Shown here: positions 21,559 through 38,481 of the stretch, piece by piece
Layout of the letters: every line of letters begins with the position of its first letter
Numbering within the stretch: the first letter of the stretch is position 1
Translations under genes and position numbers: made by a program
Notes under the pieces: model-generated
Database searches by the model: none
What the model was told of the DNA's origin: nothing
What the model saw: only the letters and a program-made list of their open reading frames with translations
Assembly: GCA_029838215.1 (NCBI GenBank)
Contig: JALGVI010000013.1
Coordinates: 1 to 44,921 of the forward strand
Reading direction: 5' to 3'
From: Candidatus Helarchaeota archaeon
Lineage (GTDB): Archaea; Asgardarchaeota; Lokiarchaeia; Helarchaeales; RDOG01
DNA: 44,921 nucleotides

Positions 21559-23025
21559 ATGGCAGTATTTGAAAAATATGGGTTTGGAAATAAAATTGCG
21601 TATGGAATGGGCAATGTTGGGGACACGATTGCATACCAGACATTTACTTTTTTTATATTTGTATTCTATTATGCTGTTGTTGGCTTGAATACATGGTGGA
21701 TCATGGTTGCATTTATCATTTGGTCAATTTGGAATGCCGTTAATGATCCTTTATTAGGACTCGTTTCGGATAAGACAAAGGCAAAGATGGGACGACGGAA
21801 ATTTTGGATTCTCATCGCCGTGGTCCCATTGAGCGTGATAATGGTCCTATTGTGGACTCCACCGGCAATTTTTGGTATCCCGACCTTCAATAATCCGTTT
21901 TATATTGGACATCTTCTCAATTGGATCTATTTTCTCGTCATTATCGTCCTCTTTGATTTCTTCTACACGATGTTCAGTCTCAATACAACGGCGGCTTTTC
22001 CAGAAATGTACATGGATCAATTAGATCGAAACCAAGCATCACTGATCCGGCGAGTTTTGACAATCGTTGGTTTAATCATTGCGGTGATTCTTCCAACGTT
22101 GATCATTGGAGATACTAAAAGTCCTACAAGCTTGACGATTTATCCGGTAATGGGAATCGTTGTCGGGATTCTCGTGGCCGTGAATCTTGGAATCTTGCTC
22201 AAATGGGGACTTAAAGAACGGAAGGAATTTCAGCACGATCCTGAAGTAAATCCGGGATTTGTTGAGTCTTTGAAAATAACATTAAAGAACAAGTCATTTC
22301 TAATCTTGGTTCTCGGCAATTTAGGAAATTGGTACGTCTACGGCATAATTCCGACGGTTGTCCTGTTATATGGTCAATGGGTGCTAGGAGTTCCCGCAGG
22401 TCTTGACATCTTGAGCATGGTCCTGTTGCTTGCCACGTTTCTATCAGCCGCAGCATTGATGCCAATATGGAAGAAAATCGGCGATAAAATAGGGAATCGA
22501 AACGCGATGATATGGACTTTTATTGCTTGGGGCGGTGGCTTGATTCCGATAATGTTCGTCACCGGTCCGTTGGTATTCGATTTCACGTTATTTCTGATGG
22601 CATATATTCCCATGTTGATAATCATGATGATTGTCGGTTTCGGGATTTCAGGAAGCATATATTTAATGGACTTAGTCATCTCGGACGTGATTGACGAAGA
22701 CGAAGTCAATACAGGAGTTCGGAGAGAAGGCGCATTCTATGGCGTTAACGCGTTGATCATCCGACTTGCCACGATTCTCGTCATGGTTTCCATTGCATTA
22801 GTGTTTGGTGGTACGGGGTGGGCGGATTACACGCCTTACATTCTAGACCCGACATTTTATATATTAGGTCTAAAAATCTTGATGTCAGTACTTCCAGCCA
22901 TTGCATGTTTCCTCGCGGCAATTTGTTTTTGGATCTTTCCATTACACGGTAAAAAACTGGACGACATTAAGGAAAAATTGGCTGAACTTCACGCGAAAAA
23001 GCAAAAAGACATTAAAAGTGCTTGA
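21559..23025 (+). CDS. MFS glycoside-pentoside-hexuronide (GPH) cation symporter
   Basis: WNAVNDPLLGLVSDKT...GRRKFW, DVIDEDEVNTGVRREGAFYG and about 12 TM helices. Confidence 0.93.
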   Translation: MAVFEKYGFGNKIAYGMGNVGDTIAYQTFTFFIFVFYYAVVGLNTWWIMVAFIIWSIWNAVNDPLLGLVSDKTKAKMGRRKFWILIAVVPLSVIMVLLWTPPAIFGIPTFNNPFYIGHLLNWIYFLVIIVLFDFFYTMFSLNTTAAFPEMYMDQLDRNQASLIRRVLTIVGLIIAVILPTLIIGDTKSPTSLTIYPVMGIVVGILVAVNLGILLKWGLKERKEFQHDPEVNPGFVESLKITLKNKSFLILVLGNLGNWYVYGIIPTVVLLYGQWVLGVPAGLDILSMVLLLATFLSAAALMPIWKKIGDKIGNRNAMIWTFIAWGGGLIPIMFVTGPLVFDFTLFLMAYIPMLIIMMIVGFGISGSIYLMDLVISDVIDEDEVNTGVRREGAFYGVNALIIRLATILVMVSIALVFGGTGWADYTPYILDPTFYILGLKILMSVLPAIACFLAAICFWIFPLHGKKLDDIKEKLAELHAKKQKDIKSA

Positions 23026-23142
23026 ATTTCACCAATTTCTTTTTTTATTTTTAATATCACCCTGAATCTTGAAAAATCCATTATGATAGATAATAATTAT
23101 AATTCATTCACTGATGGTATGAATCAAAAGGAGGATACCAAG

Positions 23143-24399
23143 ATGGCTCAAAGTGGCAATAAAGACATTGAAAAAGTGCGTCAAAAAGCAATGAAACATT
23201 ATGAAAAAGCCATGAAATTTCGGTCGAAGGAGAAGTTTCCGAAGGTCGTAAAAGAGTTAAAACAAACAATGAAACTTTTTAATGAGGCGTCTTCACACAA
23301 GGAAGTGGAGAAAGTTGCTCTTCGGCTTGTTGAGATGGCACTGGTGGAAAGGGAACATAACATTGCAGCAAACGCTTTAATGGAAGCCGCAAATGCGGCA
23401 ATCATTCTCAATGAATGCATTAAGGCTTATGAACATTATAAATCAGCTATAAATTTTTACGTAGATGCCCCTAAAATTAATAAGTCCCGCGAAATAATGC
23501 ACGCGACATGTCTTGCATCATTCATCCGCCTGCTTCAAGGTCGGTTCGATGAAGGAATCTCTTTTTTCAAGACGAATTTGAAAAATAATAGGTTTAAAAA
23601 CATCGAAAAAGAACCCCTGATTCAATTTACGGAAGGAATATTAAACGGAATTATTTCCAAGAAGGATGAATATCTGGATAGAATAGAAGACATCCAAGCA
23701 AAGTTAGGCTTAAAAAAAGGCGAAATGCTTCTTTGTGAGAAAATGGTTTATATTCTTAGGGAATATCTGAAGTTCAAGATAAGAACAGAACTTGAACCTG
23801 CAAAAATTTATGCAGGAGACCAATTCACGTTTAAAATATTAATTGAACACCCAAGAAATATAGTCTTCATTGACTCTTCCCTTGATCATGATACGAATCG
23901 CTTAGAGGCAATCAGTGGACTTAATTCGAAAGAAGACGGCAAGCACTTTTCGATGGATTTCAAGGCAAGAGTTGATGGAGATACTCAAGTTGGACCAATG
24001 ACAATCGTTCTTCAAACAGAAGATGATTTTAAATTTCCTTTAACAATATCCAAGAAATTTAAGATTCTCCCAGGGAAGCCAAAAGTAGATGTAATAATCG
24101 AAGAACAACAATTGCTCAAGGGAGAAAAGAACCAATTTGATATCATACTTTTTAATTCTGGAAAAGGTGAAGCATCAAGAATCACGCTAGAATTAGATTT
24201 TCCCGAAACGCTTCTCTTTGTAGGAGGAGTTAATTCGAAAAAACTTCATTCTCTTAAAGCCAATGCAAGATTTCCGGTATCTTTTTTAGTAACTCCATTA
24301 GTTGGTGCAGAATTAAAAGGAAAATACCGTTTATCTTACTATAATGATTACAATGAAGAATTCTCGAATGAGAATGATATTGAAGTAAAGATTTTTTAA
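23143..24399 (+). CDS. TPR/SNAP-like helical repeat protein with two C-terminal Ig-like domains
   Basis: AGGAGG (23129-23134) precedes ATG 23143. The N-terminal ~210 aa are helical repeats (AANALMEAA...AYEHYKSAINFY). C-terminal beta-sandwiches include FDIILFNSGKGEA. Confidence 0.6.
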   Translation: MAQSGNKDIEKVRQKAMKHYEKAMKFRSKEKFPKVVKELKQTMKLFNEASSHKEVEKVALRLVEMALVEREHNIAANALMEAANAAIILNECIKAYEHYKSAINFYVDAPKINKSREIMHATCLASFIRLLQGRFDEGISFFKTNLKNNRFKNIEKEPLIQFTEGILNGIISKKDEYLDRIEDIQAKLGLKKGEMLLCEKMVYILREYLKFKIRTELEPAKIYAGDQFTFKILIEHPRNIVFIDSSLDHDTNRLEAISGLNSKEDGKHFSMDFKARVDGDTQVGPMTIVLQTEDDFKFPLTISKKFKILPGKPKVDVIIEEQQLLKGEKNQFDIILFNSGKGEASRITLELDFPETLLFVGGVNSKKLHSLKANARFPVSFLVTPLVGAELKGKYRLSYYNDYNEEFSNENDIEVKIF

Positions 24400-24477: not shown

Positions 24478-24855
24478 ATGGACGTATTTGGTGTTAGTAA
24501 ATATGCACGTCTTGGCTCATTTGATTTTGTTGGATTAGCTCTTTATCACATGTTTAACAGCAACATGGAAGTGAGTCAAAAATTTCGAGATCGTGTTAAA
24601 AAAACGAAAGAGAAAATAGTTCTTGATCTCGACATGTATCCCATCATGATTAATCTTACAGAAGTTCCTATCGAAATCACGAGATATTTTACAGAAGAAC
24701 CTACAATAATAGTCAAAATGCCCACACAAGACCTCCTACACATAGTAGAAGGTAAGAGTTCAATGATTCGTTCATTTTTAACGGGAAAAATGAAATTAAA
24801 GAGAGGAATTACTAAACTTATGAAGGTTTATAATCTTTTTTCGAAAGTACTTTAA
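24478..24855 (+). CDS. SCP2 sterol/lipid-binding domain protein
   Basis: PTIIVKM...LLHIVEGK..MIRSFLTGKMKLKRG, the C-terminal SCP2 signature. Confidence 0.8.
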   Translation: MDVFGVSKYARLGSFDFVGLALYHMFNSNMEVSQKFRDRVKKTKEKIVLDLDMYPIMINLTEVPIEITRYFTEEPTIIVKMPTQDLLHIVEGKSSMIRSFLTGKMKLKRGITKLMKVYNLFSKVL

Positions 24856-24881
24856 TTTATTGATTAATAGAGGATGATTTC

Positions 24882-26330
24882 ATGGTGCAACAAACAGAAA
24901 TTCATGATTCAATTACTAAGGAATTGAAAGAAATAGTTGGTGAAGAGTGGGTGTCCGACTTTCCAGAGGAATTACACGCTTATTCTTATGACATGACAGA
25001 ACACCCACCCAGCATGCCAGATTATGTAGTTATGCCACAAACTCCGGAAGAAATTCAAAAAATTATTAAATTGGCAAATGAACACAAGATCCCGGTCGTC
25101 CCATTTGTTACGGGCAATAATGTTGGCGGCCTCACAATTCCCTTAAAGGGTGGAATTGTTGTTGATTTAAAAAGGATGGATAGGATAATTCGGCTCGATG
25201 AAGATGATATGTATCTCATAATAGAGCCGGGTGTCACTTTTGGACACGTAAAAAGGTTTCTTGAGAATACGGGTTTCAGGTATTGTTATCCGAACGCCCC
25301 TCCATTCGCATCAGTCATGGCAAACGCACTATTGGGAGGATTGAATAATCTTTCATTGAAACACGGTAACATGTCTCACGTTATTAATGGTATCGAAGCA
25401 GTTCTCCCTACTGGAGAATTAATAAGAATAGGGAGTTGTGCCCTTTGGGACGAACATTGGTGGTCCCTTGGCTCTCTTCCTGACCTTTTAGGATTATTTA
25501 TCAATTGGCAGGGCATGAGCGGTATAGTTACAAAAATGGCAATCCAAGTCTGGCCAAAAAAACCAATAAACCACATATTGGTCGTGTTATCGTACGATTT
25601 AGCTTCTACTTATGATTTTGTAAGAAAAGTCACTCATTATGAAATTTTAGATGACTTGCTTTTAATGTCAATGGAAACAATCAAGATGGTAAATGGCGTT
25701 CCGTATGGTAAAGCAGTCCATCTTGAGGGTGAACCCCGATGGGCTCTTGTTCTTGACGTTAGTGCTAATATCGAGCTCGAATACAAGGCAAAATATAAAA
25801 TGATCCATGATTCATTTAAAGAGTTGAAAAAAGCCGATCCAAATGCATTATTCACGACTGCCGAAGTCGCAGAAAAATTATACGGAAGAAGGATGGGAGA
25901 TTTCCAGAGATTGCCGTTTGCCATTGGTGGAATGCTTGAATACGGAGGAAATACTTGGGTAGGAACCTACATGACAACAAAGCCAGAAGCGGTCGTCAAA
26001 GGTGTTGAAAAAGCATTTGAAATAATTCGAAAATATGATTTTGAAAGTTGTCTTTACACACGTTCGATGTCAGGTCATCACTACTTTGCCTTCAGATTTC
26101 TTCTTCGATTTTCTAAGGAAAAAGGTGAGTCAGAACGCATGCAAAAATGCAACAAGGAACTATTAGATACGCTATTAGAACAGGGAGCATTTCCGTATAA
26201 GACACCGGCGTGGGCATCTGAAACGATTATCAAACGCGTGAATGAGAATTGGTATGAATTATTCAAGAAAGTAAAAAAGACGATAGATCCAAATGGAATC
26301 ATGAATCCAGGAAGATGGGGACTAAAATGA
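24882..26330 (+). CDS. FAD-binding oxidoreductase (VAO/PCMH/GlcD superfamily)
   Basis: YSYD...PDYVVMP.T.EEI, GGIVVDLKRMDRI, IEPGVT, GIEAVLPTGE, GIVTKM and DPNGIMNPG motifs. Confidence 0.92.
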   Translation: MVQQTEIHDSITKELKEIVGEEWVSDFPEELHAYSYDMTEHPPSMPDYVVMPQTPEEIQKIIKLANEHKIPVVPFVTGNNVGGLTIPLKGGIVVDLKRMDRIIRLDEDDMYLIIEPGVTFGHVKRFLENTGFRYCYPNAPPFASVMANALLGGLNNLSLKHGNMSHVINGIEAVLPTGELIRIGSCALWDEHWWSLGSLPDLLGLFINWQGMSGIVTKMAIQVWPKKPINHILVVLSYDLASTYDFVRKVTHYEILDDLLLMSMETIKMVNGVPYGKAVHLEGEPRWALVLDVSANIELEYKAKYKMIHDSFKELKKADPNALFTTAEVAEKLYGRRMGDFQRLPFAIGGMLEYGGNTWVGTYMTTKPEAVVKGVEKAFEIIRKYDFESCLYTRSMSGHHYFAFRFLLRFSKEKGESERMQKCNKELLDTLLEQGAFPYKTPAWASETIIKRVNENWYELFKKVKKTIDPNGIMNPGRWGLK

Positions 26331-27505
26331 GCAGCAACGATGCTTTGAATAATTTTAAAGAGGAAATATATTGTTGTACCAAGTGCGGGACTTGTAAATA
26401 TATCTACATGGATTACGCGGATTCTTGTCCTTCAGGCAAAAAATTCAGATTCGAGACATTTTATCCGAGTGGGAGAATACATCTCGCAAGGGGACTTTTC
26501 GAAGGCAAGTTAAAATGGAATGATCGGGTTCGGGATATTATTTTTGCGTGCCCGACTTGTGCAAGTTGCACGATACAATGTCAATCGAGGCATCATGATG
26601 CCATCGTTGACATCATTGAGGCATTAAGGGCCGATGCGGTTTCCAAGGGATTTGGTCCTTTGCCCGGTCAAAAGTTGTTTGCTGAATCGATTAAAAAAGA
26701 ACACAATCCGTACAAAGAAAAGCACGTGGAACGACTGAGTTGGAAAGAAGGAATGCAAGACCAAGTTCCAGAAAAAGAGAAAGCAGAGGTACTCTACTTT
26801 GTCGGGTGTACATCATCCTATCGCCAACAAGACCTTGCCCGTAACACGGTCAAGTTGTTAAATAAGTTGGGTGTTGATTTTACGGTTTCTAAGGATGAAT
26901 GGTGTTGCGGCTCACCGTTGATGAGGACAGGGCAATTAGATCAAGTCGTTGAACTGGTAAAAAACAATTTAGAATTAATAAAAAAGACCGGAGCAAAGAC
27001 AGTGATCAGTTCTTGCGCAGGTTGTTATCGAACTTTAAAAGTTGATTATCCAAAATATGCTGAAATGCTGGAAGGCGTCGAAATTCTGCACGTTACCGAG
27101 TTTTTACAAAAGATCATGAAGCAAAAAAAGGTCAAGTTCAAGAAAAAATATAATGGATTGAAAGTCACGTATCACGATCCTTGCCACCTTGGGAGACATT
27201 CTGGAGTGTACGATGCACCTCGGACAATTATAAAAGCCATTCCTGGAATTAAAATGATTGAGATGCCCAGAACACGTGAGAACTCGTGGTGTTGTGGTGC
27301 TGGCGGCGGAGTGAAATCAGCATACAAAAAGTGGGCTGTCGAAATCTCCAAAGAAAGAGTAGAGGAGGCAGAAAAAACAGGCTGTGAAATCTTATTAAGT
27401 GCCTGTCCTTTCTGCATGACGAACTTGCAAGATGCCATCAATGATTCCAATTCAAAAATAAAGTTTATGGATGTTGTTGATTTACTCACCGAGGTACTTC
27501 AGTAG
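26327..27505 (+). CDS. Fe-S oxidoreductase (GlcF/GlpC/HdrD-like; 2x[4Fe-4S] plus two CCG domains)
   Basis: CTKCGTC...CP, CPTCASCTIQC, YFVGC, WCCGSP, SCAGC, YHDPCHLGR, CCGAGGG and ACPFC. ATGA overlap with the upstream gene gives a start at 26327. Confidence 0.92.
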   Translation: MSSNDALNNFKEEIYCCTKCGTCKYIYMDYADSCPSGKKFRFETFYPSGRIHLARGLFEGKLKWNDRVRDIIFACPTCASCTIQCQSRHHDAIVDIIEALRADAVSKGFGPLPGQKLFAESIKKEHNPYKEKHVERLSWKEGMQDQVPEKEKAEVLYFVGCTSSYRQQDLARNTVKLLNKLGVDFTVSKDEWCCGSPLMRTGQLDQVVELVKNNLELIKKTGAKTVISSCAGCYRTLKVDYPKYAEMLEGVEILHVTEFLQKIMKQKKVKFKKKYNGLKVTYHDPCHLGRHSGVYDAPRTIIKAIPGIKMIEMPRTRENSWCCGAGGGVKSAYKKWAVEISKERVEEAEKTGCEILLSACPFCMTNLQDAINDSNSKIKFMDVVDLLTEVLQ

Positions 27506-27540
27506 CACTTTCCTCAAGACAAATTTCACGGGCTAAAAAC

Positions 27541-28020
27541 ATGTTGACCACGAAAAAGAAGTTTGATCATTCCAGAGAAAAAGTTCGGTTGAGAGCAATC
27601 GCCAATCTTCTTTATTTACTCATAAACATATACGGCTTACCGGAAACTAAGAAAAGAATGAAGAAAATCGATGGAAAGGAGTTCATCATTCGATTTCCCG
27701 CGTTAAATGGTGCCATAACTTATAAGATTAGTGGCGATCAGATGGTTCCTTACATTGGTGAATCCAAGGGTGCCATTGGACGATTGACCTTCAAGGTAAA
27801 AGAAGAGAAAATCATGGAGACCATCGAGCAAGTGATAAAAATGCCGGGAAATAACACCGGATTCTTACGGCTCGTATTCAAATATCTCTTGACAGGGAAA
27901 ATTGGTTTTGGTGGAGCCATGATTTCAACGATGAGGTTTGTTAAAAGCATCATGCTGGGAAAGCATGAAATGTACAAGATCGAAAAGACCTTACGCGAGT
28001 CGAAAAACGGTGGAATTTGA
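27541..28020 (+). CDS. SCP2-like domain protein
   Basis: FIIRFPALNGAITYKI...LLTGKIGFGG pattern resembling SCP2, located inside the cluster. Confidence 0.55.
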   Translation: MLTTKKKFDHSREKVRLRAIANLLYLLINIYGLPETKKRMKKIDGKEFIIRFPALNGAITYKISGDQMVPYIGESKGAIGRLTFKVKEEKIMETIEQVIKMPGNNTGFLRLVFKYLLTGKIGFGGAMISTMRFVKSIMLGKHEMYKIEKTLRESKNGGI

Positions 28021-29146
28021 TCAGTTGGAATTCGTGAAGGCTTCACGAACAATAACCAATTCTTTCATGGAAAAATGGAAGAAAAATAAGAACAAGATCA
28101 TTGGATATTATTGCGGCTATGTTCCTGAGGAAATCCTGCATGCAATGGGATTTCTTCCGTATAGGATGAGGGCAACAGGGTGCAAGGATACGGCATTAGC
28201 AGACGCCATTCTTTCCCATTTTAATTGTAGTTTTGTTAGATGCTCTTTAAATCTTGCTTTGGAAGGCAAGTTCGATTTTTTGGATGGATTGACGATCATT
28301 AATTCTTGCGATCACGTGCGCCGGTTATTTGATATTTGGAAGAGAAAAGTCAATACGGACAAGGATTTCCCTTTATTTTTCATTTCGGTTCCTCATTTAG
28401 TCACGGACCATGGTCGTGGATGGTACCATTCCGAGATTGATTGTTTCATTAAGAGTCTGGAAAAAAGATTCAAAATCAAGTTAGAAGAAGAAAAGCTCGT
28501 GAATTCCATCAAGGTTTACAACGAAAACAGGCAGATCTTGAGGAAAATAAATGAGCTGCGTGCCGTAAAAGAGCCAAAAATTACGGGGTCTGATTTCTAT
28601 AAACTCATGGTTTCGAATTCTTCCATTCCCAAGGAAATCTGTAATCAGGAATTAAATCAAATTCACGGTTCATTAAGGGAAAAAAGCAATTTAGCCAGTC
28701 ATAGAGCAAGATTAATGCTCGTTGGAAGTTTCGTGGATAATCCGGATTTTATCAGCATATTTGAAGATGTTGGAGCTCAAATTGTTAGTGATTCGTTGTG
28801 TCTTGGATTGAGAAATATATGGGATGATACGAAAATCACGAAAAAACCACTACAGGGTTTAGTGGATCGGTATTATGAAAAAATTGCCTGTCCGCGAATG
28901 ATGAATCGGCATTCTGAACGATTGGAATTTATCGTTAATCAAGTGAAATCGACTAACGCGGATGGAGTTGTGGTCCAAAGGCTTGAATTCTGTGATCTTC
29001 ATGGTGTCGATAACATGCTCCTTCAACACGATTTGGAAGACTTGGGCATCCCTGTGTTAAATATCGATAGAGAATATTTGATGGGAGATATTGGAAGGTT
29101 CAAGACAAGAGTGGAGGCTTTTATTGAACAACTTTTGGTAGGATGA
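28010..29146 (+). CDS. 2-hydroxyacyl-CoA dehydratase/benzoyl-CoA reductase subunit (HgdB/BcrC/BzdN-like)
   Basis: IIGYYCGYVPEEILHA.G, NSCDHVRR, CPRM, ADGVV...FCDLH and LGIPVL.ID.EY...GRFKTRVEAFIE. GTG at 28010 is the probable start; the ORF track extends to 27938. Confidence 0.9.
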   Translation: MEFDQLEFVKASRTITNSFMEKWKKNKNKIIGYYCGYVPEEILHAMGFLPYRMRATGCKDTALADAILSHFNCSFVRCSLNLALEGKFDFLDGLTIINSCDHVRRLFDIWKRKVNTDKDFPLFFISVPHLVTDHGRGWYHSEIDCFIKSLEKRFKIKLEEEKLVNSIKVYNENRQILRKINELRAVKEPKITGSDFYKLMVSNSSIPKEICNQELNQIHGSLREKSNLASHRARLMLVGSFVDNPDFISIFEDVGAQIVSDSLCLGLRNIWDDTKITKKPLQGLVDRYYEKIACPRMMNRHSERLEFIVNQVKSTNADGVVVQRLEFCDLHGVDNMLLQHDLEDLGIPVLNIDREYLMGDIGRFKTRVEAFIEQLLVG

Positions 29147-30423
29147 GGATGACAAGAACGATAATACCATATGAAATCATTTATGAAGCTGCCGACGTGC
29201 AAGACGATTTAATAGCAAGAGTCTTACCAGAGCATGAGCAGCAAGTCTTGAAATCATTCTTGAAAAATTTAAAATCAGCTCTCTCGGACATCCTTGAAGC
29301 GGCTCGTGAAGGAAAACCCATTCTTGGTTATCATTTTGCATTCCCTGCAGAAATATTCTATTGTTTTGATTTAGCACCAGTTTGTTTCGAGCTCCTTCCC
29401 TACATGTATTCGGCGTTTTTTCGTGATGGAGCAGAATATTTTTATGAACGGATAAATGCATGGGGACATCCGTATCATTCCTGCACGAGTCAAAAAGGTA
29501 TGATGGCCATGATTCAAGAAGGTCTCATTGATTTGGACGTGATTTGCACGCCAACAGGACCGTGTGATAATACCGTAGCAAGTTATCAATTTTTTTCGAA
29601 TTATAAAAAGAAGAAAACTCCTTTGATCGTTGCAGACCTCCCTGTTTATCAAAATGACCGAGCTAAAGAATACTATGCTGAAGAACTCAAGTCCCTTTTG
29701 GAACAAGTTGGAAAAATCATCGGACAAGAACCTGATTATGGACGGCTGAAAACTGCCGTGAAGAATAATAGAGAAGCACATGAATACTTGATTGAAATCA
29801 ACCAACTCAAGCGAACGATTCCGTGTCCTTTAGAAAGTTTATCTAACTCGATCATTACCAGCGCAACGGTATTTCTTCCAGGAAGACCCGAGAAGGTTCA
29901 ATTTCTAAAAGAAGTTTATGAAGTTACAAAAAAACGGGTCCAAAATAATGAATCAAGACCAGGATTTGAAAAGCACAGATCCGTGTGGCCTTATCTTTCT
30001 TTATTTTTTGACTTGAGTTTTTATGAATGGATGGATAGGGAAATTGGCATGACACAGGTAATCGATCCATTCAACATCTATTTTTACGAGCCAATTTATA
30101 GTAATGATGTCGATGAAATTCTTACCCAGATTGCCGTTCAAAGCCAAAATTATCCGATGGTCAGGCAAGGTTCTACTTTTATTGAAACTTTAATTGATGA
30201 TTCGCTTTGGGCTGCACGTGAGTTTAAGGCAGATTGTGCTATCTTCACGGCACATTATGCCTGTAAACAAATCGTATCAGCCATTCAGATCCTAAAAGAA
30301 GCGTTTCGCGATGAGCTAGGAATCCCAATGCTTACTATTGAATTAGATTGTGGAGATAAAAGATTCACGTCAATTCAATCCATAAAAGAACAAGTATCAG
30401 AATTTGCAAGAACTTTACTATAG
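29143..30423 (+). CDS. 2-hydroxyacyl-CoA dehydratase/benzoyl-CoA reductase subunit (HgdA/BcrB/BzdO-like)
   Basis: SCTSQKG, PCDN, ADCAIF..H.ACKQ and LGIPMLTIELDCGDKR. ATGA overlap with the previous gene. Confidence 0.88.
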   Translation: MRMTRTIIPYEIIYEAADVQDDLIARVLPEHEQQVLKSFLKNLKSALSDILEAAREGKPILGYHFAFPAEIFYCFDLAPVCFELLPYMYSAFFRDGAEYFYERINAWGHPYHSCTSQKGMMAMIQEGLIDLDVICTPTGPCDNTVASYQFFSNYKKKKTPLIVADLPVYQNDRAKEYYAEELKSLLEQVGKIIGQEPDYGRLKTAVKNNREAHEYLIEINQLKRTIPCPLESLSNSIITSATVFLPGRPEKVQFLKEVYEVTKKRVQNNESRPGFEKHRSVWPYLSLFFDLSFYEWMDREIGMTQVIDPFNIYFYEPIYSNDVDEILTQIAVQSQNYPMVRQGSTFIETLIDDSLWAAREFKADCAIFTAHYACKQIVSAIQILKEAFRDELGIPMLTIELDCGDKRFTSIQSIKEQVSEFARTLL

Positions 30424-30432
30424 TGAATTCGA

Positions 30433-31206
30433 ATGTTTTTCGCAGGAATCGATGCAGGATCGTCCTATTGCAAATGCATTATTTTAAAAGACGGTCATAT
30501 CAAATCAAAATCCATTACCATTATCGAAGGAAACCCAGCAAGAGCAGCAAAACTTGCCTTGAACCAAGCTCTCTCACCATTAAAATTAAAAAGTAGGAAT
30601 CTTACAGGGGTCGTATCAACGGGCAGAAATCGCAAGAAAATAAAAATCAAAAACGAAGAAATGACAGAGATCATGTGCATTAGTAAAGGAGCTCATCATC
30701 TCGTTCCATCACTGAGAACGATTGTCGACCTTGGAAGTTTCACGAATAAAGCGATTAAAATAAATTCCAAAGGAAAAGTAATGGACTACGTCATTAATGA
30801 CAGGTGTGCGTCAGGATCGGGATATTTCCTTGAGTTGGTTTCTAAAGCGCTAGAGATAGATATCAATGAGTTGGGAGAAAAGGCACTGCTCTCTAAAAAC
30901 CCGTTATCCATAACGAATAATTGTAGTATTTTTGCAGAATCAGAAGTAATATACTTGATTAATGAAGGACATGATGAACTCGATATTGCTGCAGGAGTTT
31001 GTAATTCAATTGCTAGCAGGTTAGTTTCTTTATTGAAGAAAGTAAATTACGAGAATGACATCACGCTAACAGGTGGAGTCGGGAGCAACGAAGGAATTAG
31101 AAAGAATTTAGAGGAGCGGCTTGATATACAACTTAAAGAATTCCCAATCGAACCGATTTTTATTGGCGCATTTGGAGCAGCCCTCTTCTCACAAGAACTA
31201 CAATGA
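30433..31206 (+). CDS. ASKHA ATP-dependent activase, divergent copy (BcrD/BzdP-like)
   Basis: AGIDAGS, STGRNR, VDLGSFTNK, NDRCASGSG, CSIFAESE, LTGGVG and GAFGAA. Confidence 0.9.
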   Translation: MFFAGIDAGSSYCKCIILKDGHIKSKSITIIEGNPARAAKLALNQALSPLKLKSRNLTGVVSTGRNRKKIKIKNEEMTEIMCISKGAHHLVPSLRTIVDLGSFTNKAIKINSKGKVMDYVINDRCASGSGYFLELVSKALEIDINELGEKALLSKNPLSITNNCSIFAESEVIYLINEGHDELDIAAGVCNSIASRLVSLLKKVNYENDITLTGGVGSNEGIRKNLEERLDIQLKEFPIEPIFIGAFGAALFSQELQ

Positions 31207-31227
31207 CGTGAAGGATGTGATTGCTAC

Positions 31228-32007
31228 ATGTATTATTTAGGCATCGATATCGGGTCTCTCACGGGAAAAGCTGTTGTATTGGATGACTCGGAAATTGTTG
31301 GAGAAACCGTCATCCGGGTGAAAAAAAGACCAAAACTGACCGTGGACAAACTAATGGAAAATATCAATTCAATAACGGGATTACAATTCTCAGACATCTC
31401 ATACTGCTTGGGAACGGGATATGGAAGACGGAAGATCCCTCTTGCAAACGAAACCATCAGTGAAATCACCTGTCATGGAACGGGCGCTCACTTTTTATGC
31501 CCTACTCTAAGGACTGTTATTGACATTGGGGGACAAGACTGTAAAGTCATCCGAATTGATGAACACGGACATTTGAAGAATTTCATAATGAATGAAAAAT
31601 GCGCTGCAGGAACGGGTCGTTACTTAGAACTCATGGCAGAAACGTTAAAGCTCAAGCTAGAAGAGTTAGGACCCGTATCATTAAAATCAAAAACACCCGT
31701 ATCGCTTACAAGCCAATGTTCCATCTTTGCACAGGCAGAAGTAATTCAATTCATAAGCGAGGGATTCAAAACGCGTGATATTGCCGCCGGAGTGAATAAA
31801 GCCATGGCAGAAAGAGTTGTCGATTTGGTGGAAAAAGTTGGCGTGGAAGAGGATGTGGCAGTATCAGGCGGCGTGGCGAAAAACGTGGGTGTTGTTAGAA
31901 ATTTAGAAGAAATATTACAAGTAGGGTTCAAAAAAATGCCAAGAGATCCCCAAATAATAGGTGCATTGGGTGCAGCATTGATTGCCAAGAAATCCTTCAA
32001 GAAATAA
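31228..32007 (+). CDS. ASKHA ATP-dependent activase, canonical copy (BcrA/BzdQ/HgdC-like)
   Basis: LGIDIGS, TGYGR, EITCH..GA, IDIGGQDCK, MNEKCAAGTGRYLE, CSIFAQAE, SGGVAKN and GALGAA. Confidence 0.92.
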   Translation: MYYLGIDIGSLTGKAVVLDDSEIVGETVIRVKKRPKLTVDKLMENINSITGLQFSDISYCLGTGYGRRKIPLANETISEITCHGTGAHFLCPTLRTVIDIGGQDCKVIRIDEHGHLKNFIMNEKCAAGTGRYLELMAETLKLKLEELGPVSLKSKTPVSLTSQCSIFAQAEVIQFISEGFKTRDIAAGVNKAMAERVVDLVEKVGVEEDVAVSGGVAKNVGVVRNLEEILQVGFKKMPRDPQIIGALGAALIAKKSFKK

Positions 32008-32013
32008 TGGGGT

Positions 32014-32436
32014 ATGGAGATGATGGAAATCAATCCAAATGAAGAACTACCGATGAATGCTCGGGAACAAGGTCTGGAAATGGAATGTATCTATTGCAAG
32101 CACGTTTATCCAGAATTAAAAAAAGAAGAATGCCCTTTTTGTAAGGGCAAAGGTCTCGTGTTTCAACCAGCTCAAATGATGGAGAAAAGGCTCTCTAATG
32201 TAAAAATTTTTCGAGACTTGAAAGATTGGTTGAATTTTGTCATGGAAGAAAATCTGTTGGCAGAATACCAAGACGAAAATGACATCGTTAAACAAGATCA
32301 AGCAAAGGTGGCGAAGAGAACAGCAATTAATCTCGTGAAAAGGATGATTATTTACAACTTCAACCTAAAAGAAGCAATTATCGAGTTTATTCATGACTTA
32401 GATCGTAATTACAATTTAGAAAAAACAAATTTTTAA
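32014..32436 (+). CDS. Hypothetical zinc-ribbon protein
   Basis: CIYC...CPFC near the N-terminus followed by a helical region. Start position is uncertain. Confidence 0.55.
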   Translation: MEMMEINPNEELPMNAREQGLEMECIYCKHVYPELKKEECPFCKGKGLVFQPAQMMEKRLSNVKIFRDLKDWLNFVMEENLLAEYQDENDIVKQDQAKVAKRTAINLVKRMIIYNFNLKEAIIEFIHDLDRNYNLEKTNF

Positions 32437-32466
32437 GAAGAGAGAAAAAACATCCAATAAAAAAGA

Positions 32467-33333
32467 ATGATTTTATTAATGGAAATGAAAGAAATGGGAA
32501 AATTTGATAAATATGTTGTAAAAGGCATAAAATGGCAGAAATCACTCCCTTATCACGTATCGAAGATTGGTCCACCTTTTAATAAATGGCCGATATTGAT
32601 GGATGGTTCCGAAAAACGAGTTTCTGGAGCAAGGATTTGGGCCTATTACATGTTTTTTAACGATGCAAATCCTGGTCTTGCGAAAATGCAATTAAAATGG
32701 GCAGATAGGCATCGGCATCCAGACATTGATGAGACTTACCTCGTCCTCGGACAAAGAGATTCTTTTAAAGTAGAAATAACATTGGATGAAGAAGTTTTCC
32801 ATTTAACTCCGCCGAGTGCAGCTTTCATTCCTTCAGGTTTTACTCACTCAATAAAACCCATAGAATTCGGGGAAGGTGCCACGGGCGGTCTTGTAGCCAC
32901 CGTTACGAATGGAGAATATCTTTGCATTCCTCCAAATGAGTTTGACATGAAAGAAACACGAGAAAACGAAGCATTTATCGTGCGACACGAAACACCGATA
33001 TTGATGAGCAAGGAGAAAGTAGAGCGGGCAACAATGCATGTATTTTATGATTTTAATGAGACAAATGATCCCGTGATTGACGAACGTCAGAAAGAAATGA
33101 TCACGAATCGTCACGTGCATCCAGAAGGAATGAATGAAGTAATTCTGGTAATTGGGCAGGGAAGCTCGGTTACTTTAGAGCTCACGCTAGAAAACGAACA
33201 ATTTCAATTGACTCCACCGAGTGCAGTTTATATTCCAGGTGGCATTGAGCACGAGCTTCAATATTCTTTTAAAAAAGGAAAAGTTGGGGGAATACTTTCA
33301 ATTTGTGATAAAGGAGATTACTTGAAGATATAA
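32467..33333 (+). CDS. Bicupin protein (two cupin domains)
   Basis: Two copies of RHxHP...E...LTPPSA.FIP.G..H. The start is one of several ATGs between 32467 and 32494. Confidence 0.8.
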   Translation: MILLMEMKEMGKFDKYVVKGIKWQKSLPYHVSKIGPPFNKWPILMDGSEKRVSGARIWAYYMFFNDANPGLAKMQLKWADRHRHPDIDETYLVLGQRDSFKVEITLDEEVFHLTPPSAAFIPSGFTHSIKPIEFGEGATGGLVATVTNGEYLCIPPNEFDMKETRENEAFIVRHETPILMSKEKVERATMHVFYDFNETNDPVIDERQKEMITNRHVHPEGMNEVILVIGQGSSVTLELTLENEQFQLTPPSAVYIPGGIEHELQYSFKKGKVGGILSICDKGDYLKI

Positions 33334-33339
33334 AAAAAA

Positions 33340-36300
33340 TTATTTTTTAGGATTTACTGGCTCCTTTAACGGACTGCCACAATCCTTACAATACTTGCTT
33401 TCAATCGGGTTTTCTGAGAGACAATGCGGGCATTTTGTTGTCTGATCGAAGAAATGTTGTTCTGGAGAGATGTTTGTTCGACAGTTCACGCAATATTGGG
33501 CAGATTGAACGTTCACGTAATTGCAGCTTGGGCATTTTTTTACGGGTTCCAAGATAATCCCCGAAGTGTCCATATCAGATTTTTGGAAGAAACCCACGAT
33601 GAAAAATCCAAGAAACACGAGGAATGCAGGACCGATAAATGCCAGTGCCGTTGGAAGGACCAATAAGAAGCCATCTGCAGAAAGCGGAAGCAGAGAAATA
33701 CCCAATAGAACTAAAAAGAAGATAATCTTCATATTAATGCGCGAATAGGTTCGTCGTAGTAGTTCTTCTTTTGTAAATAGAATGACGGATATGTTTGCGT
33801 TTTGCTTCTTATATACAGATGTATTGTGGATGCTTTTACGTATGTCCCAATAAACAGAAAATGTGAACACTATGAGCGAGGAGAAAACTAATGATATTAT
33901 TTTTATATAGATAGATGGGATAACGGCGATATTTGGAATTACGATTGGGACTGAAGTTCCGCTTTCTTGGACAATATAGTAATATATCCACGATATTTGA
34001 CCACCAATGTATAATGTATAAATCGTGATGGCCAAGAAAATAACGGGATGAATCATGTTAAGTGCCATGCGTAACAAGTTAACATGTTCTCGCCGAATGG
34101 AAAATTTGGAATCACGATATAACCAAGTTACGTGGACGGATAATGCAAGAAACATTGCAATTATCATCACGATTGTTGCGATTTCATATGAGTGGAAAAT
34201 CCATGCCAGAATTGAAGCCGCAACAGTACAGCCGATCATGGAGATGAAACACGTTCCGTACAGAAAATTAAAATGCGAAACATTTGGCGGTAATAGAGAC
34301 TGTGTTGCAAGTTCAAGATTTTTATCCTTTAATGACTTGTTCTTTCCCGATTTCTTTTTAGTTGCTTTCACGAATTTTGATATTTTCTCATGCATTAGAT
34401 TAATCTCTTGTCTTGTTTCATCATTTGCTCGCTTTTTAAAATAAAGATAAACGGAACCAATCACCGCTCCCACGATACAAGATCCCAAGATTATGACAAT
34501 AATTTGTTCCACGGTTAAAGAGATGGTCGGAAACGCGGGATAAATATCATACGGCTGCAAGTCGCCTTCTCCAAGGATGGTATATTGGTTGTCAGCAGTA
34601 TCGAAATATATTATATAAAATTCAAGTTCTTCAGCACCCAAAAGCAGAGATTGATCAATTGTATAAGAAAACATGGAGTTTGTAGAATCAAAACTGAAAT
34701 TTGCCTCAATCCACACGGGATCTTGAATCAATGGTGTCTTAATCTTGTAGAACAGCGTCACATTTTTTACATAATTTTCACTATCAAGGACAAGTAAAGA
34801 GATCGTGAAGTTGTCCAGTTCCAGAAATTTAGGGCCTACGGGTCGATCGACATCAGAGAATTGAATGTTCGGTTTTGAAATTAAGAAGACATCACCGTAA
34901 AATATTCTCGAATCATAATCGTAACTCTCATTTAAACCCTGAAAATCATCGGTCGCATTAATGAATACAAAGAAACGGATTTTATAGCAGTTCGTGGCAT
35001 TTATCGTGTAAGAATATTCAATGTCCTGAATTTCTTCATTTGGAATGATCACGTGATTAAATGTTGAACCATTCAAGAATTCTAACGAATAGTTCAGAAT
35101 GATGGTGTCAATATCCGGCATGTCATCATCATTTATGTCGTTTGAGGTCAGGACAATTCGAATTGGAATATCATCGTATGTTGTTAGGTCCCGATCATAG
35201 ACAACAATTGCGGAGATGTTTTTAAGGCTCTGAAATATCGTGCTTACTAAGGTCGAATTTGCCCGATTGTTTCCTTGATCAGCGATTTCGACTTTGTACC
35301 AAATTTTCTTTTCATTTAATGGTGAGGGAACGAGGGAAAAATCAGGGTCATAGAAAGTTGTATTTGAGTCCAATAGCGGATTTGGAAATTCATAGTAGCC
35401 CACGACTTGAAAACTTGAATCAGTAGGAGATATTTCGGTCTTATTTGTAACGGCCCGATATATCGTGTAATTTGAAATCGAACCCGAAAAATTCAAGCCG
35501 GGATTCACGGTCCAATTTAAAAGAAAATCACTTGGATTTGTTATAAGACTGGGCAAACCTTCCAAGATAGGGGCGGAGTCTAAAATATTGGAGTTTTCAA
35601 TATTCAAATTTGAAGTTGTAAAATCATGACTTTCAACACGGCACCAATTTAGGGTCAAATGAGCAGTATCAGAAGCTTGTAGGGCAGTTAAATTACAAAG
35701 TAAAAAGGATACAGTAGAATTATCGAAGATCGAAGATGCCTTAAAATAAGAATTTTCCGAAGAAACATTTGCTTCGGAGTTCACTCGTAAATCTTCGCAT
35801 GTTGAATCAGTTATTTGAAGATTGACAGTCATGGGAGGTAATGTCAAAAATTCATTATTTGCCCAGATATACCCTCCATTCGCTATTGAACAATTATATA
35901 GACGGACATCTCCCGACAAGATCCAAAGAAATCCTTTAATAATGGTATCTTGAATCTCGTTTGGCACTAAGTAGTTTGCTAAAAACATTTCTTGTCCATA
36001 AAATGTTGAATTAATGGCAGTGAAATTCACGCTTGAGCCGATATTAATCGTGAATCCAGAAGTGATGGTGCTATTTTCGAGAACAAAGATATTATTTCCA
36101 TTACTGAAATCAATTGTGGGAAAGGTACAATTTTGAACTATCACTGTCGTGTCGTCATCTGCAATCCTCAAGGTAATATTATTAGAAAAATAATCATGTA
36201 ACCAAAAAGATGCACCACGTTCAATTTCTAATTCAGACCAAGATAATTCCTGCATTTTGATGGAAGAAAGTCCTAAATTTGTGTCATTAGTATAAAATAG

Positions 36301-38481
36301 TGAATCACTTCCATTCAACCAGACCCAAGATTGTCCCAGTCTCAGGTTACTGATGTTGAGATTTTCAAGATCCAAGTTAGAGAAAGAATATAGATTTAGA
36401 TTTGTAATATTGTATACGTTTTTAACCGAACCTGAAACGTATTCGGTACTGGAACTGGAACCAAAGGTCAGCGAGGTTGAATCGCCAGTACTCGTCATGT
36501 GGACGTTCGTTATGTTAAAATTTGTGTTGTCACGTATGGTCATATACGATATGCCATAGACATCGTGTATTTCCGCCGTAGTGTTCAATCTCAAATATAT
36601 GCTTTCAGTTACATTTGAACGTAAAACTGTGAGGTTAACGTTTCCATAAGAATCAATCATGTCAGTAACAAAAGAATCAGATATAAAAATAGTGACATTT
36701 TGATTGTTAGAATATGTATTGGGTTTGATATTTTTAAATTCAGAATTTTGAATTGTTGCACTTGCATTATGATAAATTCCGATTTCAAGGGACGTGGTGG
36801 AATTATTCATGTTGAATTTAGAGTCGTGATTGCCATACACGTAAATAGAACCTGCTTCGACACCTTCGTCGTTACAGTTTTCAATCGAAAGCCTACTATA
36901 CGAATAGAGAGTTGAACAAATTATTGTAGAATTGACATAAAATAAATTTGCTTCAGTCCCGGTTTCATCATACCAAACACCAGCACAAATATACCCATCT
37001 TTAAGATTAGACAATGTTGAGTTTAGAAAATACAAGGAACTATTTTCCCGAGCATCACAGGTGAAAGATGTTCCATTGAAACCGTCAAAAACCATTTTAC
37101 TATCGCCAAATAGTTCAAGTTGAAAGGAATTGGGCGTGTTTGAATTATTCAAGTATAATGAAGAATTATCATAGAGTCTTAATCTCTTAAAATCTCCGCC
37201 TATTGTGGCGTTGTAAAGAGTGCCTGAACTAAAATTGAATAAATCCATAAAAGAAATTTGACTTTCCTTGATTTCCATGGTCGCATTGTTTTTGGCGCAG
37301 ATGTAATTAATTTTCGAGTTTCTTGAAACGTTAAGAAATGTCATCGGACCATCCAAGTAGATGTTTCCGTCCATTTGAGTGGAATTTGTGATTGTAATCT
37401 TGCGGTTCGCATCAGATAAATAAGATGGTAAATCAAGCCTCGTGAATGTCGTGTTTTCGATTGTAATGGACAAGTTTTTTTCAAGAGCTAGATTCAAGTG
37501 AAGGGTAGAATTTAAAACGGTAATATTTGAATTCATGTCATATATTCCATTCATGTATACATTTACTTGAGAAGCAGTCGAATTTAACTCATCAATGATA
37601 ACTTCGTTGTTTTCGTGAAGATTAATATTTCCTCCATATTTGAAAGTGTCACGTAAAATGGAGAGTGTTGCATTATCATAACTAAATGAACGGAAAGAAA
37701 TGCCAAACGAGTTATTATAGAAAGACATACTTGCATTTCCCCAGTTTTCAAATTTGGAACTTTGAGTTTTCACTTCTCCACACGAATCCAAAACAAAAGA
37801 ACTGTCATTGTAAAAAAAGTTTTCCCATATGTTCACGTTATTTATTTTTGTTTCATATAATGTCACGTTAGCTTCATTGAATGCACAAAATCCAGTCGTA
37901 AATTCATTGAATGTTACATTTTCAAGATACACCACGGCATTATCACGCACAACGGGTTGAGTCATGAAATCATCAAAAGACGTATTAATACAATGAAAGA
38001 ATGCATCACCGGTTATTTCAAAAAGCCCTAAGTGTTCGATGTTGGTACCATTAGTGCAGGTCAGGCTTGAATTATCTGTTACTTGGAGGTAACCTGATGC
38101 ACCACTTGTTTTTATGGTTGAATCGTTAAAAGTACAAACTCCTCCTTGTTGAACCAAAACATTATCTGCAGAGCAATTAATGAGCCAAGCCATTGCCGTA
38201 TTTTCTACAATAATAAAAACATCACTCAAGGAATTTGATACGGTGCAGTTCCTGAAATAATATTTGCCTGAACTACAGGTTATATTAGTTGTCCAAATTT
38301 TGTCAACGTATGTATCCGCGGAAAGGGCTATCTGAACAGCACTATTATTCGGTGCCTCGGGAGACACGTCCTTTGGGATGAAATTAATAAAAATAAATCC
38401 AGAAAATTGAATAAAGATTGGAAATATCATGAAAAACATCAAAAATAAAATTAGAGTATATCGAAGTTTTGCCTTCATCAT
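33340..38481 (-). CDS. Giant surface/membrane protein (1713 aa) with a parallel beta-helix ectodomain, FnIII/Ig domains, ~7 C-terminal TM helices and a double zinc ribbon
   Basis: N-terminal signal segment, ~950 aa of N/S/T/I-rich beta-helix-like repeats, LNWTV...YTIYR (FnIII-like), seven hydrophobic segments, and C-terminal CPSC..YCVNC and CPHC..YCKDCG. Confidence 0.7.
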   Translation of the reverse strand: MMKAKLRYTLILFLMFFMIFPIFIQFSGFIFINFIPKDVSPEAPNNSAVQIALSADTYVDKIWTTNITCSSGKYYFRNCTVSNSLSDVFIIVENTAMAWLINCSADNVLVQQGGVCTFNDSTIKTSGASGYLQVTDNSSLTCTNGTNIEHLGLFEITGDAFFHCINTSFDDFMTQPVVRDNAVVYLENVTFNEFTTGFCAFNEANVTLYETKINNVNIWENFFYNDSSFVLDSCGEVKTQSSKFENWGNASMSFYNNSFGISFRSFSYDNATLSILRDTFKYGGNINLHENNEVIIDELNSTASQVNVYMNGIYDMNSNITVLNSTLHLNLALEKNLSITIENTTFTRLDLPSYLSDANRKITITNSTQMDGNIYLDGPMTFLNVSRNSKINYICAKNNATMEIKESQISFMDLFNFSSGTLYNATIGGDFKRLRLYDNSSLYLNNSNTPNSFQLELFGDSKMVFDGFNGTSFTCDARENSSLYFLNSTLSNLKDGYICAGVWYDETGTEANLFYVNSTIICSTLYSYSRLSIENCNDEGVEAGSIYVYGNHDSKFNMNNSTTSLEIGIYHNASATIQNSEFKNIKPNTYSNNQNVTIFISDSFVTDMIDSYGNVNLTVLRSNVTESIYLRLNTTAEIHDVYGISYMTIRDNTNFNITNVHMTSTGDSTSLTFGSSSSTEYVSGSVKNVYNITNLNLYSFSNLDLENLNISNLRLGQSWVWLNGSDSLFYTNDTNLGLSSIKMQELSWSELEIERGASFWLHDYFSNNITLRIADDDTTVIVQNCTFPTIDFSNGNNIFVLENSTITSGFTINIGSSVNFTAINSTFYGQEMFLANYLVPNEIQDTIIKGFLWILSGDVRLYNCSIANGGYIWANNEFLTLPPMTVNLQITDSTCEDLRVNSEANVSSENSYFKASSIFDNSTVSFLLCNLTALQASDTAHLTLNWCRVESHDFTTSNLNIENSNILDSAPILEGLPSLITNPSDFLLNWTVNPGLNFSGSISNYTIYRAVTNKTEISPTDSSFQVVGYYEFPNPLLDSNTTFYDPDFSLVPSPLNEKKIWYKVEIADQGNNRANSTLVSTIFQSLKNISAIVVYDRDLTTYDDIPIRIVLTSNDINDDDMPDIDTIILNYSLEFLNGSTFNHVIIPNEEIQDIEYSYTINATNCYKIRFFVFINATDDFQGLNESYDYDSRIFYGDVFLISKPNIQFSDVDRPVGPKFLELDNFTISLLVLDSENYVKNVTLFYKIKTPLIQDPVWIEANFSFDSTNSMFSYTIDQSLLLGAEELEFYIIYFDTADNQYTILGEGDLQPYDIYPAFPTISLTVEQIIVIILGSCIVGAVIGSVYLYFKKRANDETRQEINLMHEKISKFVKATKKKSGKNKSLKDKNLELATQSLLPPNVSHFNFLYGTCFISMIGCTVAASILAWIFHSYEIATIVMIIAMFLALSVHVTWLYRDSKFSIRREHVNLLRMALNMIHPVIFLAITIYTLYIGGQISWIYYYIVQESGTSVPIVIPNIAVIPSIYIKIISLVFSSLIVFTFSVYWDIRKSIHNTSVYKKQNANISVILFTKEELLRRTYSRINMKIIFFLVLLGISLLPLSADGFLLVLPTALAFIGPAFLVFLGFFIVGFFQKSDMDTSGIILEPVKKCPSCNYVNVQSAQYCVNCRTNISPEQHFFDQTTKCPHCLSENPIESKYCKDCGSPLKEPVNPKK

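Follow-up and report, generated by a model that had tools for sequence, protein, structure and literature searches.

A 44,921-nucleotide contig of a Candidatus Helarchaeota archaeon (JALGVI010000013.1, referred to here in its full length as the window) carries ten open reading frames (ORFs) on the plus strand between positions 24478 and 33333, numbered here g1 to g10 (Table 1). Among them is a trio of genes (g4-g5-g6) that is conserved in related archaea and encodes an SCP2-fold protein together with two subunits of an enzyme related to benzoyl-coenzyme A (CoA) reductases (BCR), 2-hydroxyacyl-CoA dehydratases (HAD), and the double-cubane cluster protein DCCP. In the ORF listing of the window, the ten genes are separated, in order, by 26, 35, 13, 9, 21, 6, and 30 nucleotides (nt), with overlaps of 16 nt between g2 and g3 and of 4 nt between g5 and g6; the g4-g5 gap is 47 nt if g5 starts at the ATG at 28068. 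A preliminary description of this DNA had reported ten co-oriented genes, and both the genes and their domain calls hold against the ORF listing and Pfam. Its statement that the cluster has no CoA ligase or ring-hydrolyzing enzyme is confirmed by Pfam searches of the ten proteins, which found no CoA ligase, CoA transferase, or ring hydrolase; a gene for a ferredoxin or BzdV is likewise missing from the cluster. The co-oriented run really begins two genes upstream of g1, with a gene for an MFS_2/GPH transporter followed by one for a protein of 438 amino acids (aa), and is closed downstream by a convergent 1713-aa gene from 33340. The closest public locus is that of Helarchaeota Hel_GB_A.

Table 1. 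Genes of the co-oriented run and their positions in the window.
Gene and product	Position	Strand	Basis
MFS_2/GPH-family symporter, first gene of the run, possible substrate importer	21559..23025	+	Pfam MFS_2, 2.5e-56
438-aa protein without family, membership uncertain	23083..24399	+	Co-orientation
g1, SCP2 protein paired with the flavoprotein (S1)	24478..24855	+	Pfam SCP2, 28.3 bits (cutoff 21.3)
g2, VAO/PCMH-superfamily flavoprotein	24882..26330	+	Pfam FAD_binding_4 and FAD-oxidase_C
g3, HdrD/TfrB-like iron-sulfur protein; 2x[4Fe-4S] ferredoxin domain, two CCG domains	26315..27505	+	Pfam CCG (3.3e-41), Fer4_8
g4, dedicated SCP2-fold partner of the N/O enzyme (S*)	27541..28020	+	Structure model, Foldseek, gene linkage
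g5, BzdN-like subunit (N), predicted double-cubane [8Fe-9S] cluster	28034..29146	+	Pfam HGD-D; start possibly ATG 28068
g6, divergent catalytic subunit (O-like), three-Cys [4Fe-4S] site	29143..30423	+	Pfam HGD-D, model, invariant Cys
g7, activase with degenerate ATPase motif (P-like)	30433..31206	+	Pfam BcrAD_BadFG
g8, canonical activase (Q-like)	31228..32007	+	Pfam BcrAD_BadFG
g9, 140-aa CxxC-x12-CxxC protein, orphan	32014..32436	+	Motif; no Pfam match
g10, bicupin with two intact HxH..E..G / PxGxxH metal motifs	32467..33333	+	Pfam, two cupin halves

The N subunit of the enzyme, g5, is closest to BzdN (8s02_B, E = 2.4e-48), in which Cys36/73/100/263/293/327 are the ligands of an [8Fe-9S] double-cubane cluster (PMC11971306). 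Six cysteines of g5 (C27, C65, C92, C256, C286, and C320) align one to one with these ligands, are invariant in 18 orthologs, and match the ligands of the DCCP double cubane as well. Where g5 has C27 and C256, HadC carries Pro and Ala. The best NCBIfam match of g5 is the double-cubane model NF040772 (195 bits, cutoff 350), and its best 120 word-index matches are all Asgard orthologs with generic names.

The g6 protein is a divergent catalytic subunit of a new family; family placement was made by curated hidden Markov model (HMM) cutoffs, profile scores against PDB sequences, and fold comparison. The g6 sequence alone matches only DCCP (E = 7e-3), and a 24-sequence profile matches DCCP, HadB, BzdO, and MbdO at E values of 2e-11 to 6e-10. 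The structure model of g6 has a predicted local distance difference test score (pLDDT) of 86, and HadB, BzdO, MbdO, and DCCP fit it about equally, with template modeling (TM) scores of 0.71-0.81 and identities of 15-17%; HadB is the top match at 0.81. The model fits the catalytic chains (HadB, BzdO, and MbdO; TM 0.74-0.81) better than the N/beta chains (0.64-0.75). Three cysteines (C114, C141, and C374) and E83 are invariant in g6, the glutamate being aligned with Glu55 of HadB, and the place of the catalytic His131 of BzdO is taken by Thr144 (consensus CDNT). The wider g6 family is of modest size (252 representatives in a set of 1.8 billion proteins, at E <= 1e-30), and its names are all generic, the orthologs being annotated "2-hydroxyacyl-CoA dehydratase" in organisms named as Helarchaeota, Promethearchaeota, and Sigyn-, Hod-, and Hermodarchaeota. 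Distant relatives occur in Dehalococcoidia and Jordarchaeia. A related genome of 5.8 Mb has at least six HGD-D genes clustered within 17 kb (G001, C2:325639-342791), an expansion of the family within the order.

The two activases, g7 and g8, are separate proteins of about 258 aa that are 39% identical to each other. Both cluster cysteines are kept in each, and g8 also keeps the DIGGQDCKV motif, whereas in g7 DIGGQD is replaced by DLGSFTNK and the motif is likewise lost in all six orthologs examined. This asymmetry between the P-like and Q-like proteins is conserved in seven of seven clusters examined. The closest solved relative of g8 is HadI (4eht, E = 1.2e-64), with MbdQ at 3.3e-63.

The SCP2 fold is found in both g1, which scores above the Pfam cutoff, and g4, which has no Pfam match and is assigned from its model. 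The g4 model, built from 18 orthologs, has a pLDDT of 88.5 and a predicted TM score of 0.80. Its best structural match is UbiJ-SCP2 (Foldseek E = 6e-7, TM 0.67-0.73), sterol carrier proteins and alkylsulfatase SCP2 domains come next, and all 20 Foldseek matches at E <= 0.001 are SCP2 proteins or domains. Weak Pfam SCP2 matches also occur in 4 of the 18 family members. The label "SCP2-like" that g4 was given from its sequence is therefore correct, since the model matches UbiJ-SCP2 and other SCP2 structures. Literature searches found no paper that ties SCP2 to this enzyme family.

The locus was compared with 20 loci of genomes that belong to the class of the host and with 80 metagenome loci gathered with a g6 alignment, and 65 loci remained after near-duplicates were removed. 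The conserved core is the g4-g5-g6 trio (S*-N-O), which the activase pair and the g1-g3 module often join; the O gene is duplicated in 13 of the 65 loci. The ten genes do not form a single conserved unit, because g9 and g10 are not conserved in relatives; the unit comprises eight genes at most, with a tight core of three. The expectation that the SCP2 genes belong to the cluster is borne out. Of the 40 loci that have at least 700 nt upstream of N, 36 have S* there in the same orientation as N, directly adjoining it in 31 (12 of these with a 4-nt overlap) and standing in the other five in the Helarchaeales order S*-SCP2-FAD-CCG-N, where FAD denotes the flavoprotein gene. The four exceptions are the window itself (a long g5 ORF call overlapping g4), two loci cut by contig ends, and one in which S* is nearby on the opposite strand. 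An SCP2 gene is immediately 5' of the flavoprotein gene in 12 of 12 cases in related loci.

Among the sampled genomes, the trio occurs only in the class of the host (Lokiarchaeia-like, including Helarchaeales). A g4 profile detects the gene in 53 of 78 genomes of this class (52 of 77 besides the host) and in none of the 223 genomes sampled from 26 other Asgard families; within genera its distribution is patchy (15 of 22 genomes in one, 22 of 27 in another). Fifty-six genomes were present in both the g4 and g6 samples: all 37 with a g6 ortholog (E below 1e-87) have g4, 17 that lack g4 have weak g6 paralog matches or none, and two fragmented assemblies are the only mismatches; the relatives are not independent, and these counts carry no statistical claim. 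That the genes are jointly present or absent within genera still speaks for a functional link between g4 and the enzyme and for an accessory role of the system. Within the host genome (G000), g4-type genes accompany two close N/O paralogs (contigs C11 and C90) but not three other N/O pairs. The C90 locus (C90:567-5189, L031) is a paralogous N-O-P-Q cluster, 41-55% identical, with its SCP2-fold gene after the activases rather than before N.

The flavoprotein g2 and the iron-sulfur protein g3 form the module that, with g1, precedes the trio. Among solved structures, g2 is nearest to 4-phenol oxidoreductases (E = 2e-35), and in its C-terminal part it aligns with enzymes of the p-cresol methylhydroxylase (PCMH) type rather than with lactate dehydrogenases. 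PCMH has a phenolate-binding Tyr-Tyr-Arg triad and a flavin-linking Tyr384. Compared with PCMH, g2 has a gap at Tyr95, Lys440 in place of Arg474, and Gly in place of the covalent-FAD residue Tyr384; its Tyr439-Lys440 pair is invariant in 10 orthologs. Assignment of g2 to the 4-phenol oxidoreductases (VAO, PCMH, EUGO) was rejected on the missing triad and covalent flavin site. Assignment as a GlcD or D-lactate dehydrogenase was rejected as well, at 110 bits against a GlcD cutoff of 568. Reading of the g2 sequence revealed no GEHG-type metal-binding His/His/Glu motif, a mark of these flavoproteins. The best NCBIfam match of g3 is TfrB (255 bits, cutoff 385). Other lineages have a different flavoprotein subfamily (about 35% identical) beside the trio, and yet others have a DUF6125 protein and a 340-aa CCG protein in its place.

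Of the remaining genes of the run, g9 and g10 were rejected as parts of the system. For g9, which had been called a zinc ribbon, the CxxC-x12-CxxC motif stands, but the protein matches no family; it was not found in the related loci compared. Its relatives among 20 related genomes are one 34%-identical protein (G018, E = 2.8e-11), whose genome lacks the trio, and one marginal match (G003, E = 4e-4). The two halves of g10 are 37% identical, and the gene is a local duplication-fusion of a single cupin, relatives of which (about 150 aa) are confined to the same order and sit at unrelated loci. The 438-aa protein has no Pfam match and no homolog in related loci, and is not similar to the TPR protein in the equivalent place of locus L001. 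The symporter scores 176 bits with the NCBIfam GPH model (cutoff 231) and has weaker matches to MelB and a glucuronide transporter; homologs lie near the trio in L020 and L022 (42% identity) and in L023 (26%).

Further genes recur around the trio. A glycoside hydrolase of family GH2 follows it on the same strand in 8 of the 65 loci and passes the NCBIfam beta-glucuronidase equivalog cutoff (592 bits, cutoff 544), and a GPH-family symporter is present in the window and the three fetched relative loci just named. No CoA ligase or transferase is recurrent among the neighbors in related loci. Also recurrent are DUF6125 proteins (11 loci) and the pairing of a CooC/NifH-like ATPase with a CdhC-like protein (11-12 loci), with a DUF7065/DUF7064 protein plus a 454-aa partner and a PPDK_N protein with a PEP-utilizer swivel domain occurring more rarely. 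The host genome has the pair of 260-aa CdhC-like protein and ATPase directly beside a BcrAD-type activase (C87:50763-53214, L047), and the pair is also seen elsewhere (e.g., L026:14467-16062). Three copies of DUF7065/DUF7064 with a 400-450-aa protein of no family are found in the host (C131:21340-25312, C100:1012-3364, and C87:56525-58658), the first being followed by a FAD_binding_3 flavoprotein (geranylgeranyl-reductase/UbiH-like). Kinship of DUF7065/64 with tocopherol cyclases comes from a language-model atlas (0.95) and is a weak lead, the Pfam Tocopherol_cycl model giving no match on the genome's copies. An operon for an acyl-CoA mutase, comprising a large subunit, a B12-binding subunit, and a MeaB GTPase, immediately precedes the trio in the same orientation in four non-redundant loci (L028, L030, L032, and L125), of which three belong to a single genus.

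The flank of the window beyond g10 is encoded on the minus strand. The 1713-aa protein (33340-38481), whose gene ends 6 nt past g10, has a C-terminal double zinc ribbon; a 530-aa protein with a confirmed Radical_SAM domain (39348-40940) is encoded 6 kb from the cluster. A MaoC-like dehydratase gene (41295-41756), together with 12-13 crotonase-type genes in the host genome, suggests extensive acyl-CoA metabolism.

The interpretation to which we give a probability of about 0.55 is that the cluster encodes an undescribed member of the BCR/HAD/double-cubane superfamily, with a BzdNOPQ-like build and a dedicated SCP2 protein, that is accessory and probably catabolic. As read from its sequence, the architecture is that of an ATP-coupled reductase rather than a dehydratase. 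By analogy with BzdNOPQ, g7, with its degenerate ATP site, and the canonical g8 would form an asymmetric activase heterodimer in which ATP drives a low-potential electron into the predicted [8Fe-9S] cluster of g5. The electron would then pass to the three-Cys [4Fe-4S] cluster of g6, which would have an open iron site, and the chemistry there would be a reduction (more likely) or a radical dehydration. The SCP2-fold protein g4, often translationally coupled to g5, would most likely hand a poorly soluble substrate to the enzyme; UbiJ and UbiT serve prenylquinone intermediates. In this lineage the second SCP2 protein, g1, would serve the VAO-type g2, from which electrons would leave through the HdrD-like CCG protein g3, probably on the same compound.

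The preliminary description had proposed a lipid or hydrocarbon as substrate. The glucuronidase, the transporter, and the two SCP2 carriers hint at an imported conjugate with a hydrophobic aglycone, and the first two, with the patchy distribution within genera, point to catabolism of an imported amphipathic compound rather than to membrane-lipid synthesis. A bolder proposal is that this is the first BCR/HAD-superfamily member with a substrate delivered by a protein carrier instead of as a soluble CoA ester, by which sediment Asgard archaea would attack reductively the hydrophobic aglycone of imported glucuronides or glycolipids, the SCP2-served flavoprotein carrying out a second step on the same compound. 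We regard this as tentative and rather doubtful in its full form. Under this proposal the aglycone might be an ether-lipid or isoprenoid core, a phenol with prenyl or alkyl groups, or a steroid-like compound.

Several observations weigh against the catabolic system described above. The carrier role proposed for g4 is drawn from its modeled fold and gene linkage; SCP2 proteins also bind acyl-CoAs; and to our knowledge the characterized heterodimeric enzymes of the superfamily all take CoA thioesters as substrates. An ordinary acyl-CoA may thus be the substrate instead. The glucuronidase and the transporter are each found in a minority of loci, and of the 65 loci only 15 have the activase pair next to the trio, 20 the flavoprotein, and 18 CCG proteins. 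The FAD/CCG proteins belong to a large generic family: pairs also occur in genomes without the trio, and the host genome has about 18 pairs of FAD_binding_4 and CCG genes (e.g., C1:49550-52177, C27:38504-41286, C87:35363-37985, and C108:230-7780). FAD/CCG is a generic dehydrogenase module, and this locus has recruited one copy together with an SCP2 of its own.

The name under which the orthologs are deposited corresponds to an alternative in which the enzyme is an (R)-2-hydroxyacyl-CoA dehydratase and g2/g3 a D-2-hydroxyacid dehydrogenase (split YdiJ/Dld-II-like), both serving fermentation of amino acids or 2-hydroxy acids; long-chain substrates would then explain the SCP2 proteins. The top structural match of g6 to HadB, the conserved counterpart of HadB Glu55, and the closeness of g8 to HadI are in keeping with this, as are the YdiJ-type domain set (FAD_binding_4, Fer4, and CCG; weak NCBIfam match, 3.6e-8) and the acyl-CoA mutase operon in four loci. 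However, the Had equivalog models are far from reached (HadB 33 bits, cutoff 750; HadC 156 bits, cutoff 700), the six-Cys site of g5 is that of BzdN and DCCP, two of its cysteines being absent from HadC, and two different activases, one of them degenerate, take the place of a homodimer. A CoA transferase is found in none of the loci, the three family III CoA transferase genes of the genome lying on other contigs, and g2 combines its low GlcD score with a PCMH-type C-terminal part. This alternative is unlikely. A genuine ATP-dependent aryl-CoA (benzoyl-CoA-type) reductase of anaerobic aromatic degradation is less likely again, although the gene order is that of bzdNOPQ, g5 is nearest to BzdN with the same ligands, the activases form a heterodimeric pair, the nearest solved relatives of g2 oxidize phenols, and Bcr genes have been reported in Lokiarchaeota and Hermodarchaeota (PMC8163825). 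Even by family profile g6 reaches BzdO only at E = 4.5e-10, and no NCBIfam Bzd or Bcr (BcrA-D) equivalog cutoff is reached by the cluster proteins (BzdN 179 bits, cutoff 454; BzdO 26.6, cutoff 449; BzdQ 217 and 145, cutoff 380). Thr stands in place of His131, none of the cluster genes encodes a CoA ligase, ferredoxin, or BzdV, and g2 lacks the phenolate triad. In the 94%-complete genome, searches for dch, had, and oah gave at best 72, 105, and 108 bits (cutoffs 292, 339, and 464) and found only generic crotonases and dehydrogenases. The scores, the lost histidine, and the missing downstream genes uphold the earlier view that the system is distinct from classical benzoate degradation, and we know of no Bzd or Bcr system with an SCP2-fold partner.

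The earlier suggestion of a link to PlsA/PlsR leads to a third alternative, in which the system makes or remodels the membrane lipids of the cell (ester-to-ether reduction of the PlsA/PlsR or Ger type, or isoprenoid modification) and SCP2 extracts the lipid. Two SCP2-fold proteins would suit such a role, the activase and HGD-D superfamilies are common to PlsA and Ger, and a DUF7065/DUF7064 gene adjoins the trio in some related loci, the tocopherol-cyclase resemblance of its product being the atlas lead described above, on which the Pfam model gave no match. The hallmark of Ger/PlsA, a fused BcrAD-BcrAD-DUF2229 (BBD) protein with short HGD-D fragments (PMC13159169), is absent, and Pfam finds no DUF2229 match on any of the ten proteins, so the proposed link does not survive. 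The trio is missing from about one-third of the genomes sampled in the class, and the gaps fall even within single genera; such a patchy distribution is unexpected for, and argues against, a core membrane-lipid step. The transporter and glucuronidase in the loci suggest an external substrate. Synthesis or remodeling of the cell's own lipids is accordingly the least likely of the explanations considered, and very improbable. The trio enzyme is thus probably neither the benzoate-degrading nor the amino-acid-fermenting enzyme of databases and papers.

The literature on Asgard archaea takes this family, as "Bcr," for evidence of aromatic-hydrocarbon degradation, while annotation pipelines name its members 2-hydroxyacyl-CoA dehydratases. 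Should the trio have neither function, these reconstructions of metabolism would have to be corrected. A conserved partnership of SCP2 with an ATP-driven iron-sulfur enzyme of very low potential would, if true, extend such chemistry to poorly soluble substrates, and it would offer a concrete target, one that can be expressed, for finding out what the abundant Asgard archaea of sediments consume.

Among known systems, the PlsA/PlsR and Ger enzymes share with the cluster the BcrAD_BadFG and HGD-D superfamilies and anoxic conditions, and they show that the superfamily can act on lipids (PMC13159169); here, in contrast, the N and O subunits are separate and full length and the activases are separate. 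HadBC with HadI (PDB 3O3M, 4EHT) has the same catalytic fold (TM 0.81), the three cysteines with Glu, and the activase closest to g8, but g5 has the double-cubane ligand set rather than that of HadC, in whose class a single [4Fe-4S] cluster is bound by three Cys and a sulfido ligand, the activases are two different proteins instead of one activator homodimer, and neither a CoA transferase nor an NAD-dependent 2-hydroxyacid dehydrogenase is encoded here. DCCP with its reductase DCCP-R (PDB 6ENO, 7YYL) shares the six-Cys [8Fe-9S] site of g5; it is a homodimer of one six-Cys subunit, whereas here N is paired with a three-Cys subunit, and g6 scores 42 bits with NF040772, below the cutoff that g5 also fails to reach. 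BzdNOPQ and MbdONQP (PDB 8S02, 9G87, 9GAI; PMC11971306) come nearest in build, with the N-O-P-Q gene order, all six N-subunit [8Fe-9S] cysteines, a three-Cys [4Fe-4S] site in the catalytic subunit, and two different ATPase subunits. They differ in that g6 is only about 16% identical to BzdO and MbdO by structural alignment and, of the site formed by three Cys, Glu65, and His131, keeps the Cys and Glu residues only. For the carrier, the closest parallel is UbiJ/UbiT (PDB 6H6O), where the best structural match of g4 is found and where a small SCP2 protein is encoded with soluble enzymes acting on a lipid-like intermediate, although g4 is only 13-15% identical and the partner enzymes are unrelated. 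The BzdNOPQ architecture is already known, and what is new here is the catalytic subunit family and its obligate SCP2 partner.

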